Numbered from the stretch's first letter, positions 38,626-44,560 are shown. The stretch: 64,000 bases of DNA from Squalus acanthias (GCA_030390025.1 CM059431.1:96474001-96538000); one strand, 5' to 3'. Numbers and translations are program-made. The notes: generated by a model not told the origin, from the letters alone.

Positions 38626-41210
38626 CCCGGTCCCTGGGTATATATCTCTCCCCCCCTCCCACCCCCCCTGTTCCCCGGGTCTCTCTCCCCCCACGCCCCC
38701 CAGACCCCGGGTCCCTCTCTCCTCCCGGTCCCCTGGTCTCTCTCTCTCCCCGGTCCCCAGGTCTCGCTCCCCCCACTCACCGGGTCTCTCTCTCTCTCTC
38801 CCGGGGTCTCTCTCTCTCCCCCAGTCCCCGGGTCTCTCTCTCCCCCCGGGTGTCTCTCTCTCCCCCGATCCCCGGTTCTCTCTCTCCCCCCGGTCGCCGG
38901 GTCTCTCTCTCTCTCTCCCCAGTCCCCAGGTCTCTCTCTCTCCCCCCGGGTTTCTCTCTGTCTCCCCCGGGTCCCTGGGTCTCTCTCTCTCTCTCTCCCC
39001 CCGGGTCTCTCTCTCTGCCCCCCGGTCCCCAGGTCTCTCTCTCTCCCCCCAGTCCCTGGTCTCTCTCTCTCCCCCCGATCCCCGGGTCTCTCTCTCTCCC
39101 TCGGTCCCCGGGTCTCTCTCCCCCCACTCCCCGGGTCTCTCTCTCCCCCCGGGTCTCTCACTCTCCCCCAGTCCCCGGGTCTCTCTCTCCCCCCTGGTGT
39201 CTCTCTCTCCCCCGGGGGTTCTCTCTCTCCCACCGGTCACCGGGTCTCTCTCCCCCCCCCCCAGTACCCGGGTCTCTCTCTCTCTCTCCCAGGTCCCCAG
39301 GTCTCTCTCTCTCTCCCCCCCCCCGGTCCCCGGGTCTCTCTCTCTCCCCCCGGGTCTCTCTCTCTCTCCCTCCCCCTGGTCCCCGGGTCTCTCTCTCTCC
39401 CCCCCCGCCCCCCGGGTCCTCTCTCTCTCCCCCCGGGTCTCTCTCTCTCTCTCTCTCTCCCCCCGGGTCTCTCTCCCTCCCCCCCGGCCTCTCTCTCTTC
39501 CCCTGGTCCCCGGGTCTCTCTCTCTCCCCCCGGTCGCCGGGTCTCTCTCTCTCTCTCCCCCCGGGTCTCTCTCTCTCCACCCCCAGTCCCCAGGTCTCTC
39601 TCTCCCCACCGACCCCGGGTCTCTCTCTCTCTCCCCCGGTCCCCGGGTCTCTCTCTCTCCCCTGGTCCCCGAGACTCTCTCTCTCCCCCCCACCCACCCC
39701 CCCCCCACCCCCCCTTCCCCGGGTCTCTCTCTCTCTCCCCCGGTCCCCGGGTCTCTCTCTCTCTCTCCCCCGGCACTCTCTCTCTCCACCCCCGGTCCCC
39801 AGGTCTCTCTCTCCCCCCACGACCCCAGGTCTCTCTCTCGCTCTCCCCAGTCCCCGGGTCTCTCTCTCTCCCCCTGGGTTTTTCTCTCTCTCCTCCCAGT
39901 CCCCGGGTCTCTCTGTCTCCCCCCCGGTCCCCGGGTCTCTCTCTCTCCCCCCGGGTCTCTCTCTCTCTCCCCCCGGGTCTTTCTCCCTCCCCCCAGTTCC
40001 CGGGTCTCTCTCTCTCCCCCCGGTCCCCGGGTCTCTCTCTCTCTCTCCCCCCGGGTCTCTCTCTCTCTCCCCCCGGTCCCCGGGTCTCTCTCTCTCCCCC
40101 CGGTCCCCGGGTCTCTCTCTCTACCCCGGTCCCCGGGTCTCCCTCTCCCACCGGTCCCCGGGTCTCTCTCTCCCCCCGGTACCCGGGTCTCTCTCTCTCT
40201 CTCTCCCCGGTCCCCGGGTCTCTCTCTCTCCCCCCGGTCCCCGGGTCTCTCTCTCTCTCCCCCTGGTCCCCGGGTCTCTCTCTCTCTCTCTCCCCGGTCC
40301 CCGGGTCTCTCTCTCTCTCTCTCTCCCCCCGGGTCTCTCTCTCTCTCCCCCCGGTCCCCGGGTCTCTCTCTCTCCCCCCGGTCCCCGGGTCTCTCTCTCT
40401 CCCCCCGGGTCTCTCTCTCTCTCTCCCCGGTCCCCGGGTCTCTCTCCCCCCACTCCCCGGGTCTCTCTCTCTCCCCCTGGTCCCCGGGTCTCTCTCTCTC
40501 CCCCGGTTCCCTCTCTCTCTCCCCCCGGTGCCCGGGTCTCTCTCGCTCCCTCCCCCCGGGTCTCTCTCTCTTACCCCCAGTCTCGCTCTCTCCCCCCAGC
40601 CCCCGGGTGTCTCTCTCTTCCCCCGGGTCTCTCTCTCTGCCCCCGGTCCCTGGGTCTCTCTCTCCCCCTGGGTCTCTCTCCACCCCCCAGTCCCTGGGTC
40701 TCTTTCTCCCCACCTCCCCCCCGGTCCCCAGGTCTCTCCCTGTGTCCCCCCCCCCCCTCCCCCCCGGTCACCAGGTCTCTCTCTCCCCCTGGTCCCCGGG
40801 TCTCTCTCTCTCCCCCGGTTCCCTCTCTCTCTCCCCCCGGTGCCCGGGTCTCTCTCGCTCCCTCCCCCCGGGTCTCTCTCTCTTACCCTCAGTCTCGCTC
40901 TCTCCCCCCAGCCCCCGGGTGTCTCTCTCTTCCCCCGGGTCTCTCTCTCTGCCCCCGGTCCCTGGGTCTCTCTCTCCCCCTGGGTCTCTCTCCACCCCCC
41001 AGTCCCTGGGTCTCTTTCTCCCCACCTCCCCCCCCCCCCCCCCCCCCCCGGTCCCCAGGTCTCTCCCTGTGTCCCCCCCCCCCCCCGGTCACCGGGTCTC
41101 TCTCTCCCCCTGGTCCCCGGGTCTCTCTCTCCCCCCGGTCCCCGGGTCTCTCTCTCCCCCCGGTCCCCGGGTCTCTCTCTCCACCCGGTCCCTGGGTCTC
41201 TCACCCCCGG
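38626..41210. repeat. Pyrimidine-rich minisatellite (CCCCGGTCCCCGGGTCTCTCTCTCT)n
   Basis: Variable units with (CT)n and C-runs. Internal duplication of about 312 bp (40713 vs 41025). Position fits intron 1 of the APEX2-like exon. Confidence 0.95.
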
Positions 41211-41222
41211 CTGCTCCCTCAC

Positions 41223-42350: not shown

Positions 42351-44560
42351 GGAGGACCATCCCCGGACACAGCGCCACGCGCAGGCCGAAGGACCGACCC
42401 GGTCACAGCGCCTTCCCCAGGCCGGAGGACCGACACCGGACACAGCGCCACCCCCAGGCCGGAGGACCGACCCCGCACACAGCGCCACCCCCAGACCGGA
42501 GGCCCGACTGCGGGCACAGCGCCTCCGTCAGGCCGGAGGGCCGACTCCGGACAAAGCTTCACCCGCAGGCCGGAGGACCGAGTCCGGATACAGCGCATCC
42601 ATCAGGCCGGAGGACCGACCCAGGAAACAGCGCCACCCCCAGGCCGTTGGACCGACCCCGGTCCCGGACACAGTGCCGCCCCCGGGCCGGAGGACCGACT
42701 CCGGAAACAACGACGCCCCCAGGCCGGAGGACCGACACCGGGCACAGCGCCACCCGCAGACTGGAGGACCGACCCAGTCACAGCGCCACTCGCAGGCCGG
42801 TGGACCGACTCCGGAAACAGCGACGCCCCCAGGCCGGAGAACCGACTCCAGAAAAAGTGCCACCCCCAGGCAGGAGGACCGATCCCGGGCCCGAACACAG
42901 CGCCACCCCCAGCCGGAGGACCGACCACGCACGCAGCGCCACCCCCAGGCCGGAGGACCGACCCAGGAAACAGCGTCACCCCCCAGGCCGCAGGACTGAC
43001 CCCGGGCACAGCGCCACCCGCATACTGGAGGACCGACCCAGTCACAGCGCCACTCGCAGGCCGGTGGACCGACTCCGGAAACAGCGACGCCCCCAGGCCG
43101 GAGGAGCGACTCCAGAAACAGTGCCACCCCCAGGCCGGAGGACCGACTCCGGTCACAGCGCCACCCCCAGGCCGGAGGACCGATCCCGGGCCCGAACACA
43201 GCGCCACCCCCAGCCGGAGGACCGACCCCGCACGCAGCGCCACCCCCAGGCCGGAGGACCGACTCCGGTCACAGCGCCACCCCCAGGCCGGAGGACCGAT
43301 CCCGGGCCCGAACACAGCGCCACCCCCAGCCGGAGGACCGACCCCGCACGCAGCGCCACCCCCAGGACGGAGGACCGACTCCGGATACAGCGCCTCCCTC
43401 AGGCCGGAGGAACGACCCAGGAAACAGCGTCACCCCCCAGGCCGCAGGACTGACCCCGGGCACAGCGCCACCCGCAGACTGGAGGACCGACCCAGTCACA
43501 GCGCCACTCGCAGGCCGGTGGACCGACTCCGGAAACAGCGACGCCCCCAGGCCGGAGGACCGACTCCAGAAACAGTGCCACCCCCAGGCCGGAGGACCGA
43601 CCCCGCACACAGCGCCACCCCCAGACCGGAGGCCCGACTGCGGGCACAGCGCCTCCGTCAGGCCGGAGGACCGACTCCGGACAAAGCTTCACCCGCAGGC
43701 CGGAGGACCGAGTCCGGATACAGCGCATCCATCAGGCCGGAGGACCGACCCAGGAAACAGCGCCACCCCCAGGCCGTTGGACCGACCCCGGTCCCGGACA
43801 CAGTGCCGCCCCCGGGCCGGAGGACCGACTCCGGAAACAACGACGCCCCCAGGCCGGAGGACCGACACCGGGCACAGCGCCACCCGCAGACTGGAGGACC
43901 GACCCAGTCACAGCGCCACTCGCAGGCCGGTGGACCGACTCCGGAAACAGCGACGCCCCCAGGCCGGAGAACCGACTCCAGAAAAAGTGCCACCCCCAGG
44001 CAGGAGGACCGATCCCGGGCCCGAACACAGCGCCACCCCCAGCCGGAGGACCGACCACGCACGCAGCGCCACCCCCAGGCCGGAGGTCCGACTCCGGTCA
44101 CAGCGCCACCCCCAGGCCGGAGGACCGATCCCGGGCCCGAACACAGCGCCACCCCCAGCCGGAGGACCGACCCCGCACGCAGCGCCACCCCCAGGACGGA
44201 GGACCGACTCCGGATACAGCGCCTCCCTCAGGCCGGAGGAACGACCCAGGAAACAGCGTCACCCCCCAGGCCGCAGGACTGACCCCGGGCACAGCGCCAC
44301 CCGCATACTGGAGGACCGACTCCGGAAACAGCGACGCCCCTAGGCCGGAGGACCGACTCCAGAAACAGCGTCACCCCCAGGCCGCAGGACTGACCCCGGG
44401 CCCGGACACAGCGCCGCCCCCTGGCCGGTGGACCGACACCGGGCACAGCTCCAGCCCCAGGCCGAGGACCGACCACGGAAACAGCGCCACCCCCAGGCTG
44501 GAGGCCCGACTCCGGACACAGCGCCACCCCCAGGCCCGAGGAGTCACACGCCGGCCGGAC
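42351..44560. repeat. CpG-rich 37-bp tandem repeat (43-bp variants), CpG-island-like; also at about 41390-41468
   Basis: Unit approximately CAGCGCCACCCCCAGGCCGGAGGACCGACTCCGGACA. A 1130-bp higher-order duplication gives identical ORFs at 42559 and 43689. Confidence 0.93.

Follow-up and report, generated by a model that had tools for sequence, protein, structure and literature searches.

A locus in the window, the whole 64,000-nucleotide stretch of Squalus acanthias DNA analyzed here, was judged to have an even chance of being an orphan duplicate of APEX2 coding exon 1, complete with start codon and splice donor, embedded in repeat-rich DNA. The exon lies between two degenerate telomere-like arrays in this cartilaginous-fish genome. 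Its status as a duplicate derives from one RNA-type contig and not from a second genomic copy. On the minus strand, a CpG-rich 37-bp array is followed by the exon, a GA-rich minisatellite and a long telomere-like array (Table 1). TRF repeat calls, sequence composition and the reading frame showed all four elements to be present, in the order and at the coordinates claimed in a preliminary description of this DNA. That description had overlooked a 200-N gap, a second telomere-like block, and a probable LINE fragment that, with three decayed 37-bp units, separates the exon from the 37-bp array.

Table 1. Features of the locus, with positions counted from the first nucleotide of the window.
Feature	Position	Strand	Basis and remarks
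200-N assembly gap	19050..19249	.	N run; abuts distal end of telomere-like array
Degenerate telomere-like array	19254..38625	-	TRF period 6; TTAGGG/CTAGGG sense; satellite-like, internal segmental duplications
GA-rich minisatellite (CT-rich on +)	38626..41202	-	TRF periods 25-27; composition; contig depth
APEX2 (APE2) exon-1 homologue	41223..41358	-	Frame, homology, DNA contigs, RNA-type contig
About 3 decayed 37-bp units, directly upstream of ATG	41359..41475	.	Read by eye; composition
High-copy fragment, probably of a non-LTR retrotransposon, C-terminal ORF part	41476..42323	+	Depth, ORFs; antisense to exon
Filler, 27 nt, between LINE fragment and first full 37-bp unit	42324..42350	.	LINE-family homology stops at 42323
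CpG-rich 37-bp tandem array, 58 units	42351..44542	.	TRF, unit parsing
Non-repeat spacer, 242 bp, GC 0.488, between 37-bp array and second telomere-like block	44543..44784	.	
Second, shorter degenerate telomere-like block	44785..45342	-	TRF period 6, 87.5 copies, 69% matches

The exon starts with an ATG at 41358-41356 and remains open for 45 codons plus 1 nt (136 nt in total), with a donor GT at 41222-41221 in the context ACCC/GTGAGG and a CpG o/e of 1.01. When 1,835,955,588 representative proteins were searched with phmmer, the best match (E 8.1e-9, 68% identity) was P0001, a whale-shark protein named 'DNA-(apurinic or apyrimidinic site) endonuclease 2-like [Rhincodon typus]'. The closest solved structure was that of an AP lyase (6wcd_A, E 0.007), and the next two were exonuclease III-type chains. 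Aligned with 11 vertebrate APE2 N-termini, the exon peptide showed 42-67% identity, and its residues W15, N16, N18-R21, E41, T42 and R46 were invariant across the 11 proteins. Judged by its sequence, the exon is an APE2/APEX2 exon-1 homologue whose similarity goes beyond chance, and its earlier identification as APEX2-like was upheld by these three comparisons. Two other shark APE2 proteins begin in a similar way to its MA..., and the true start codon is probably part of the copy.

The N-terminal nuclease motifs (SWNxNGIR; LQET) are present, and E41 is presumably the catalytic Glu of the latter. From shark, ray and other vertebrate APE2, the peptide departs at D22, G38 and K40 and by being 2 residues shorter. 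Position 22 is A in 9 of the 11 homologues, and every one of the 7 APE2 sequences from sharks and rays has it. The nearly invariant Q40, next to the invariant E41, is the Q of LQET; it is K in the window and Q in the DNA of run X3 and in the RNA-type contig. Past the donor, the reading frame enters the minisatellite, and a Pfam search with the 89-aa read-through of the exon peptide returned 0 families. On the minus strand, the next 41 kb past the exon are entirely tandem repeat and gap and yielded no other APEX2 exon. Complete Exo_endo_phos (PF03372) and zf-GRF (PF06839) domains, both of which are carried by full-length APE2 proteins, were absent from the window. The window holds one exon and no gene.

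By contig depth, the exon is single-copy (5.46 in X1, 21.4 in X3), and a single contig holds it in each of these two DNA runs, which come from different samples and studies. The same contigs span the junction of minisatellite edge, exon, 37-bp remnants and LINE edge: X1 record 1 covers 41157-41495 with 0 differences to the window and X3 record 17 covers 41158-41470 with 3. Record 9 of run X16, called an RNA-type contig of the same species since the RNA nature of that run is a guess, is 441 nt long (depth 28.9). Its positions 56-180 align with 95% identity, at 6 differences in 125 nt and no gaps, to 41222-41346 only, so that both of its flanks differ from the window. Instead of continuing into the minisatellite, its match ends right at the predicted donor; the GT of the splice donor proposed in the preliminary description is the precise point at which this contig leaves the genomic sequence. 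Collinearity is also lost upstream of 41346 (codon 5), 12 nt inside the ORF, and the parent-gene promoter accordingly does not seem, by this comparison, to have come along with the copy.

Three of the 6 differences were identified as K40Q, D22A and a synonymous substitution in R21. At the two positions that are D22 and K40 in the window, the contig has the conserved A22 and Q40. The other three differences probably lie near the alignment ends, and the core of about 100 nt may differ at only 3 positions. With no listed difference at G38 and an ungapped alignment, the RNA copy appears to share G38 and the 2-residue shortening, which would make them lineage traits. In X3 DNA, only 3 differences in 313 nt were found at the locus; D22 was kept, with no X3 contig differing at 41294, and K40Q was polymorphic at the exon locus within the same flanks. 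The RNA copy is therefore more divergent from the locus than is the locus of another individual. Its sequence is in keeping with a regularly spliced mRNA of a parental APEX2 gene.

The 37-bp array (TRF period 37, 58.2 copies, 76% matches) has a GC content of 0.729, 236 CpG and a CpG o/e of 0.83. Its 58 units, 34 of them distinct, have four consensus CpGs per unit, and mismatch was 0.08 at CpG positions versus 0.124 elsewhere. The array is CpG-island-like, as described before, and its CpG positions are no more variable than its other positions. This pattern, set beside CpG decay in 8 of the 19 majority differences in the embedded LINE piece, hints at germ-line hypomethylation of the array. Higher-order copies of 300 nt lie 1130 bp apart at 97% and 829 bp apart at 94%. 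Depth in bin 42368-42400 was 2204.1 in X1, 15573.8 in X3 and 6.77 in X6, about 400 and 730 times the single-copy depth of X1 and X3, respectively; such depths make the 37-bp unit a dispersed satellite, present in many copies in organism A. The decayed units upstream of the ATG have a GC content of 0.692 and a CpG o/e of 0.79, and the one at 41447-41474 recurs with one mismatch at 42351-42378, across the LINE piece.

The LINE piece (848 bp), a probable non-LTR retrotransposon fragment of a putatively CR1/L2-like clade, is cut off at both ends and carries internal deletions and frame breaks. No reverse transcriptase domain was found by Pfam on this C-terminal piece; Atlas matches of its ORF fell in chordate clusters, in one of which 23% of the members carry RVT_1; this is a lead only. 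Summed depth was 1e5-1e6 in X1, X3 and X6 from bin 41444-41485 through bin 42284-42325. Loose contig ends occurred at 42323 in 34-74 contigs per DNA run, indicating that the LINE family continues there where the window does not, and others at 41972, 42235 and 42263. The minisatellite (TRF: 38698-40664, period 27, 75.9 copies; 40757-41202, period 25) starts about 20 nt past the exon donor and has a GC content of 0.704 and a CpG o/e of 0.56. Its bin 41150-41191 showed depths of 271.6 in X1, 19307.6 in X3 and 25406.1 in X6, multi-copy in organisms A and B. In the surrounding DNA, no Rfam families were found between 38000 and 46000. The flanks are rich in TEs: Pfam detected RVT_1 at 59758-60327 (E 7e-23), DDE_Tnp_4 at 51693-52007 and, just below the cut-off of 29.6 bits, RVT_1 at 46806-47168 (29.0 bits). 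The flanking DNA at 45343-64000 has a CpG o/e of 0.33-0.34.

The long telomere-like array measures 19.4 kb (TRF period 6, 3195.5 copies, 78% matches). Among 2900 parsed units, 1153 are CCCTAA and 612 CCCTAG; perfect CCCTAA units number 1475 of 3228 possible (46%), with a longest perfect run of 7. Decay is even, at 69-86 perfect units per kb over 19 full bins, and density stays flat up to the gap. No TTAGGG occurs on the plus strand of the array in any of 20 one-kb bins. Duplicated 40-mers numbered 3806 versus 40-93 in unit-shuffled controls, with internal duplication spacings of 1908, 1907, 819, 2405 and others. Beyond the gap, the sequence at 1-19049 consists of 39-bp and 61-bp satellites and a G/A-rich minisatellite and is linked by scaffolding only.

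The array did not have the marks of a true telomere, as judged by the fraction of perfect units, the short perfect runs, the end of the array at a gap followed by other satellites, and the internal duplications. The chromosome end assumed in the preliminary description was likewise not borne out: about 19 kb of other satellites are placed beyond the scaffold gap, the array is evenly degenerate, and a further telomere-like repeat in the same orientation (44785-45342) lies proximal to the cassette. The 19-kb array reads as interstitial or satellite-like. Degenerate, in one orientation, with variant units and higher-order duplications and flanked by other sequence, it has the properties of long interstitial or subtelomeric satellites. 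Long heterochromatic interstitial telomeric sequences (ITSs) and telomere-derived satellites are a known vertebrate category; short ITSs have reportedly been described in one published study.

If the locus is an orphan duplicate, segmental duplication or break repair would have placed a copy of a short APEX2 5' segment in subtelomere-like or interstitial telomeric DNA. The exon copy would no longer be under protein constraint, as D22 and, in this individual, K40 suggest. Unequal exchange may have expanded the 37-bp satellite (1130- and 829-bp copies), the GA-rich minisatellite and the TTAGGG/CTAGGG array (kb-scale duplications), and the LINE piece would have inserted within the 37-bp array. 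Exon-containing transcripts would derive from the parent APEX2 gene by normal splicing. The word 'captured' in the preliminary description is plausible in this sense, given an RNA-type contig that is 95% identical but not identical and has A22 and Q40 instead of D22 and K40. Pseudogenes and gene pieces likewise flank human TERRA-type promoters (bioRxiv 10.1101/2025.05.15.654290).

It is possible, although rather unlikely, that this is instead the genuine first coding exon and CpG island of the sole APEX2 gene, with satellites having invaded the upstream region and intron 1, exon 2 lying more than 41 kb off, past window and gap, and the RNA-type contig stemming from this locus in a divergent individual. 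The intact ATG, the 45-codon frame and the canonical donor at which that contig precisely leaves the window are as expected of a genuine exon, as are the seemingly shared G38 and 2-residue shortening. As at a housekeeping promoter, CpG o/e exceeds the flanking value of 0.33 both in the exon (1.01) and upstream of it (0.83). On the other side stand the number of differences in the RNA contig, twice that in the X3 locus over less than half the length; D22 in two DNA samples against A in the RNA and in every shark and ray APE2; a reference K at a nearly invariant Q beside a presumably catalytic residue; the non-collinearity upstream of 41346; and the 41 kb of downstream tandem repeats without a further APEX2 exon. 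Several points count against an orphan origin, the guessed RNA nature of run X16 among them. K40Q, one of the three core RNA differences, is also polymorphic at the locus in X3, so that, with perhaps only 3 core differences, the RNA could stem from this locus in a divergent individual. In addition, ATG, frame and donor are intact within a CpG island, as in a live first exon, and with the true start codon probably in the copy, a loss of collinearity 12 nt later is harder to explain by a breakpoint. An assembly artefact, in which exon, minisatellite and telomere-like array would not be adjacent in the chromosome and repeats would be collapsed or mis-joined within the contig, was considered the most improbable explanation. 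Compatible with it are the 200-N scaffold gap at the far end of the array and the limited reach of the short-read contigs, which bridge only 41157-41495 and leave the 2.6-kb minisatellite and the array junction at 38626 without an independent check; opposed to it are the absence of any N from 19250 to 64000 and the minisatellite/exon/37-bp/LINE junctions reproduced in both DNA runs.

The preliminary description had further proposed that the locus may drive a chimeric APEX2-exon/UUAGGG RNA. In this proposal, the 37-bp array would be a TERRA-type promoter for minus-strand RNA starting in the array or at 41.36-41.5 kb and running through, or spliced from, the exon into the UUAGGG-type array; we regard it as improbable. 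Its strand geometry held: the G-rich sense lies on the minus strand downstream of the array, and transcription of that strand would yield UUAGGG-type RNA. A tandem-repeat CpG island does lie upstream of the TTAGGG-sense tract, with CpG positions no more variable than the rest while the LINE piece shows CpG decay, at a distance of 3.7 kb and with three other elements in between, including the antisense LINE piece and the 2.6-kb minisatellite. The proposed chimeric RNA itself fared poorly, as the one RNA-type contig holding the exon matches the locus only between codon 5 and the donor. Among the contigs, which cannot reveal starts or strand and come from runs not on record as RNA, none represented a transcript collinear with this DNA. 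Moreover, the tract lacks the marks of a true telomere, and the depth of the 37-bp unit points to a satellite dispersed in organism A. The NRF1 consensus is GCGCAYGCGC and that of CTCF CCASYAGRKGGCRSY. At no more than one mismatch, NRF1 had one match in the 64-kb window, at 53879 and outside the cassette, and CTCF had 0, although the shark factors may differ. Human TERRA promoters are CpG-island tandem repeats in which the core repeat has NRF1 sites and CTCF sites lie close by (PMC6600276). Their homologues lie beside ITSs, which can be transcribed (bioRxiv 10.1101/2025.05.15.654290). Still less probable is a wider version, in which a cartilaginous-fish lineage-specific 37-bp satellite would escape CpG decay and act as a TERRA-type promoter, the captured exon would supply start and donor, and UUAGGG RNAs with a DNA-repair-gene leader would mark an independent TERRA locus outside mammals. 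A literature search found no paper on TERRA in sharks: among the matches listed in one set (8 of 12), none concerned it by title, and among those listed in another (8 of 1,653), none contained the word 'elasmobranch'.

An orphan exon would be an ordinary by-product of repeat-rich chromosome regions, a gene piece stranded among satellites. It could be mis-called as the start of APEX2 in annotation, and the 19-kb array by the scaffold gap could pass for a chromosome end or conceal a mis-join. If the exon is genuine, a housekeeping repair gene would tolerate over 40 kb of satellite and telomere-like sequence in its first intron. Only a TERRA-like function, if true, would bear on an open question, the origin of telomeric RNA promoters outside mammals.

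Compared with APE2/APEX2, an exonuclease III-family AP endonuclease (shark and ray proteins P0006-P0010; 6wcd_A), the exon shares the N-terminal 45 residues, with SWNVNGIR and (L)xETRVTR, and is 57-67% identical to the shark and ray proteins. It differs in that the remainder of PF03372 is missing, as is the PF06839 zinc finger, and in this individual K replaces Q40. Vertebrate subtelomeric and ITS gene-fragment duplicates, for example those flanking human TERRA-type promoters (bioRxiv 10.1101/2025.05.15.654290), resemble the locus in that part of a gene adjoins telomere-like and CpG-rich tandem repeats within DNA rich in TEs and satellites. The arrays also share the higher-order duplications typical of unequal exchange; here, however, the gene is APEX2, the lineage is probably elasmobranch, and only one exon is present. 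Long vertebrate ITSs and telomere-derived satellites are alike in the uniform orientation over 19.4 kb, degenerate TTAGGG/CTAGGG units, kb-scale duplications and satellite flanks, whereas the array described here ends at a scaffold gap and may be subtelomeric. With the human TERRA promoters (61-29-37 repeats), the locus has in common a CpG-rich tandem block upstream of a TTAGGG-sense tract in an orientation that would give UUAGGG. One of the human repeats happens to share the 37-bp period, although homology is not expected across this distance. In contrast to the human promoters, there is one repeat type instead of three, the cassette has no match to the NRF1 and CTCF consensus sequences, and the array is separated by LINE piece, exon and minisatellite from a tract that is itself degenerate.

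A minus-strand ATG at position 41358 starts a frame of 45 codons (MAAEAEVPGLRLLSWNVNGIRDRGRRLELRKLGAQIIGLKETRVT), and a GT donor in the context ACCC/GTGAGG directly follows this frame, which sets the exon at 41358–41223 (136 nt). When the encoded peptide was compared with PDB chains at E values up to 10, three chains matched: the AP lyase 6wcd_A (E = 0.007) and two exonuclease III-type enzymes. A phmmer search against 1,835,955,588 representative proteins returned two matches, and the top one, a 99-aa protein (E = 8.1e-9, 68% identity), was named at source as 'DNA-(apurinic or apyrimidinic site) endonuclease 2-like [Rhincodon typus]'. 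A search seeded with this protein retrieved full-length APE2 from Chiloscyllium, Mustelus, Carcharodon, Mobula, Hypanus, Latimeria, Callorhinchus, and platypus; identity of the window peptide to the aligned APE2 proteins was 42–67%. The matches point to a cartilaginous fish as the source, probably an elasmobranch. The peptide retained the invariant APE2 residues W15, N16, N18–R21, E41, T42, and R46. Two nearly invariant sites were altered (C38 to G and Q40 to K), position 22 held a D where seven of seven shark and ray APE2 proteins have an A, and the peptide was two residues shorter than the aligned proteins. Pfam, applied to the exon read-through and to three ORF pieces of the neighbouring LINE fragment, gave no match above cut-off (best DUF7222, E = 0.045), and a word-indexed search with a 48-aa exon peptide against longer proteins gave 19 candidates, none at E ≤ 0.01. 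The ESM Atlas clusters reached with the exon peptide bore no names and were uninformative; PF03372 occurred in 13% of the members of one, and another was of RecU type.

Judged by its sequence, the exon is exon 1 of APE2. The APEX2-like exon with a splice donor of the preliminary description was thus borne out by the PDB and phmmer matches and by an RNA-type contig that departs from the window at the GT. An origin as the start of a LINE endonuclease was rejected, as none of the three matched PDB chains is a retrotransposon endonuclease; the best library protein (shark APE2-like) and the departure of the RNA-type contig also counter it. No other APE2 parts were found within the window: past the donor the frame enters the minisatellite, and tandem repeat and gap make up all 41 kb that follow. 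The window carries an exon, not an APEX2 gene.

The window was vertebrate-like and very rich in repeats, and TRF and direct reading confirmed the order of elements on the minus strand, and their coordinates, as first described. Three elements were absent from that description: the LINE fragment between the 37-bp array and the exon, the second CCCTAA-type block, and the 200-N gap at the distal end of the long telomere-like array.

Repeats, exon, and transposon remnants of the window, in plus-strand order
Feature	Position	Strand	Details	Basis
39-bp satellite, AT-rich	1–8755		224 copies, 84% matches	TRF
61-bp satellite, AT-rich	9088–14641, again 17476–17783		92 copies, 81% matches	TRF
G/A-rich minisatellite	17790–19049	+ strand layout		TRF
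Gap	19050–19249		200 N	
CCCTAA-type array	19254–38625	+ strand letters		TRF
CT-rich minisatellite	38698–41202	+ strand letters	25–27-bp units	TRF
APEX2 exon 1 homologue	41223–41358	−	exon region follows CT-rich minisatellite	
LINE fragment	~41476–42323	+	between exon region and 37-bp array	
37-bp array	42351–44542			TRF
Unique sequence			242 bp, between 37-bp array and second CCCTAA-type block	
Second CCCTAA-type block	44785–45342	+ strand letters		TRF
RVT_1, just below cut-off	46806–47168			Pfam
DDE_Tnp_4 remnant	51693–52007	−	E = 1.9e-6	Pfam
RVT_1 remnant	59758–60327	−	E = 7e-23	Pfam

The 39-bp satellite showed a strong excess of C over G (GC skew of approximately −0.57), which flips to approximately +0.1 in the 61-bp satellite. 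By eye, a piece of approximately 310 bp of the CT-rich minisatellite is present twice in tandem, nearly identical, at 40460–41070; the second copy has an expanded poly-C run at ~41030–41050. At 61149–62209, a 23-bp minisatellite of very high homogeneity (46 copies, 97% matches, no indels) is open in three plus-strand frames; further repeats were a 21-bp repeat at 56515–56629 and a 23/43-bp repeat at 63661–64000. The spacer at 44600–44784, beside the second telomere-like block, may be a short interspersed element fragment; Rfam over 38000–46000, this spacer included, matched no family.

Logan contigs of four sequencing runs were compared with the window over 41150–42400, which lies between the two long arrays. 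Each of the two DNA runs of the window's organism (organism A) yielded exactly one contig over the exon region: record 1 of run X1 (41157–41495, depth 5.46) without differences from the window, and record 17 of run X3 (41158–41470, depth 21.4), from another sample and study, with three differences. Since the junctions between minisatellite edge, exon, 37-bp remnants, and LINE edge were found in both runs, they are real beyond one assembly; X1 may be the very sample behind the window assembly. Neither X1 nor X3 (the latter approximately 55% read) gave a further DNA contig covering the exon; this was weighed for neither reading of the exon's origin, as contig holes prove nothing. Holes in cover were likewise taken as evidence in neither direction for X16, a small run of organism A that is RNA-type by guess, no RNA run being on record among the runs found (41150–41191 and 41360–41443), and for X6, a DNA run of organism B (41234–41443).

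Record 9 of X16, a 441-nt contig with a depth of 28.9, aligned at 41222–41346 only (contig positions 56–180), with six differences from the window and no gaps. One end of this alignment lies no more than one base from the predicted donor, the other 12 nt downstream of the ATG; beyond these ends, 55 and 261 nt of the contig did not fit the window. Upon translation, the three listed differences of the six corresponded to K40Q, D22A, and a synonymous change in R21. At positions 22 and 40 the contig thus has the residue that is conserved among other APE2 proteins, and K40Q also occurred in the X3 DNA contig at the exon locus. As the X16 contig showed no listed difference at G38 and no gaps, it seems to share both G38 and the shortening by two residues, which are apparently lineage traits of APE2 and not defects of a copy.

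The chances that the exon is an orphan duplicate of APEX2 exon 1 are about even. In such a case, the X16 contig would be mRNA of a parent APEX2 gene elsewhere in the genome, 95% identical to the window copy, and the window copy would later have changed at two conserved sites, acquiring D22, which both DNA samples carry, and K40, which the reference individual carries; its homology to the parent mRNA would end just inside the ORF. A duplicate is favoured because these two differences are non-conservative, because the RNA-type contig differs more from the window (6/125) than individuals do from each other (3/313), and because collinearity with this contig is lost upstream. The same three observations speak against a genuine APEX2 exon 1 at this locus, with the RNA-type contig derived from the locus in a divergent individual. 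We consider such a genuine exon rather unlikely, although the three unlisted X16 differences may fall at ragged alignment ends, the locus is known to be polymorphic at one of the three core differences, and every requirement of a live first exon is present, including a CpG-island setting (exon CpG o/e 1.01). The initial claim that the exon had been captured stands as plausible, on the basis of the 95% identity, K40Q, and D22A.

The neighbouring LINE fragment is an old piece, truncated at both ends and antisense to the exon. It belongs to a repeat family with a summed depth of 1e5–1e6 in organisms A and B, and loose ends at 41972, 42235, and 42263 represent internal deletions. Since the family runs on past 42323 in 34–74 contigs per DNA run, with sequence absent from the window, the 3' end of the LINE is missing, and standard retrotransposition was rejected for this reason. 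A near-identical 28-nt variant of the 37-bp unit, with CCATCC where other units have CCGACC, was present on both sides of the piece (41447–41474 and 42351–42378, one mismatch), the right-hand copy being preceded by 27 nt of unassigned filler (42324–42350). This pair may be a target duplication or mere array periodicity. In the Atlas, the LINE-piece ORF led to chordate proteins, with RVT_1 in 23% of the members of one cluster, which is a lead only. The RT-bearing LINE at 59.0–60.3 kb looks like a family distinct from that of this fragment.

Of the 58 units in the 37-bp array, 34 were distinct, and the consensus unit contains four CpGs. The array had a GC content of 0.729 and a CpG o/e of 0.83, the latter as compared to 0.33–0.34 in its flanks. 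Internal copies were 97% identical at 1130 bp apart and 94% identical at 829 bp apart, which indicated recent unequal exchange. The first units were multi-copy in organism A (depth of bin 42368–42400: 2204 versus 5.46 in X1, 15574 versus 21.4 in X3) and nearly absent from organism B contigs (depth 6.77). These depths indicated that the 37-bp repeat is a dispersed, lineage-restricted satellite that is not private to the exon locus. The minisatellite edge was multi-copy in both organisms. Consensus-CpG positions in the array varied no more than other positions (37/464, or 0.08, versus 208/1682, or 0.124), also when only distinct units were counted (25/272 versus 119/986), whereas CpG-to-TpG/CpA changes accounted for 8 of the 19 positions at which the LINE piece differs from its family majority. 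This contrast gives a modest hint that the array may be hypomethylated in the germ line, or may be homogenised faster than its CpGs decay.

Parsed units of the long telomere-like array included 1153 CCCTAA and 612 CCCTAG among 2900, perfect hexamers amounted to 1475 of 3228 possible, and the longest perfect run was 7 units. Its orientation was uniform, without TTAGGG on the plus strand, and the density of perfect units was flat (69–86 per kb over 19 full bins up to the distal edge), with no trend toward a pure tract. Self-BLAST gave approximately 82% identity at any offset and was useless for higher-order structure, which was therefore assessed by counting duplicated 40-mers against a unit-shuffle control. 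Distinct duplicated 40-mers numbered 3806, versus 40–93 in five unit-shuffled controls, and their spacings clustered at 1908, 1907, 819, 2405, and similar values, indicating satellite-like growth by kb-scale duplication rather than via telomerase. The distal edge of the array is the 200-N gap, the contig begins inside the array, and the satellites beyond the gap are attached through scaffolding; proximal to the cassette formed by the exon and its neighbouring repeats, there is the second telomere-like block. The array is a long degenerate telomere-type satellite and, as far as sequence can tell, not a telomere. The chromosome end proposed in the preliminary description was not supported, given the flat, degenerate array, its internal duplications, the distal gap, and the proximal block. 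The satellite may be subtelomeric or interstitial, a mis-scaffolded chromosome arm being a further possibility. The gap joins a contig starting with C-rich telomere-type repeats to one ending in the G/A-rich minisatellite, possibly as a mis-join or at a real interstitial site.

TERRA-like transcription from the cassette, as initially suggested, appears highly improbable. The strand geometry fits, and the CpG-retention contrast between array and LINE piece is the sole result that leans toward this idea. Human TERRA promoters are tandem repeats of CpG-island type (PMC6600276); in human cells, homologues of these promoters are reported to adjoin interstitial telomeric sequences, and such sequences to be transcribed (bioRxiv 10.1101/2025.05.15.654290). 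However, the contigs compared gave no transcript that runs collinear with the locus, the sole RNA-type contig on the exon departs at the donor, and a distance of 3.7 kb, occupied by the antisense LINE piece, the exon, and the 2.6-kb minisatellite, separates the 37-bp array from the tract. NRF1 and CTCF consensus motifs (at most one mismatch) had no matches within the cassette. If the exon is a duplicate, the 5' leader of its parent was left behind, so that the 37-bp satellite would itself need to be a promoter. None of the literature matches listed dealt with TERRA in sharks or other elasmobranchs, so that this improbable reading would be new; a literature search on APEX2 and subtelomeric pseudogenes found no related paper.

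On the features tested, the locus falls outside the human 61-29-37 promoter family. Segmental duplications in subtelomeric and interstitial telomeric regions collect gene fragments, CpG-rich minisatellites, pieces of transposable elements, and degenerate telomere repeats. It is this known build-up that the locus most resembles, and the evidence in hand presents it as a further instance of an already known kind of locus rather than as a new kind.
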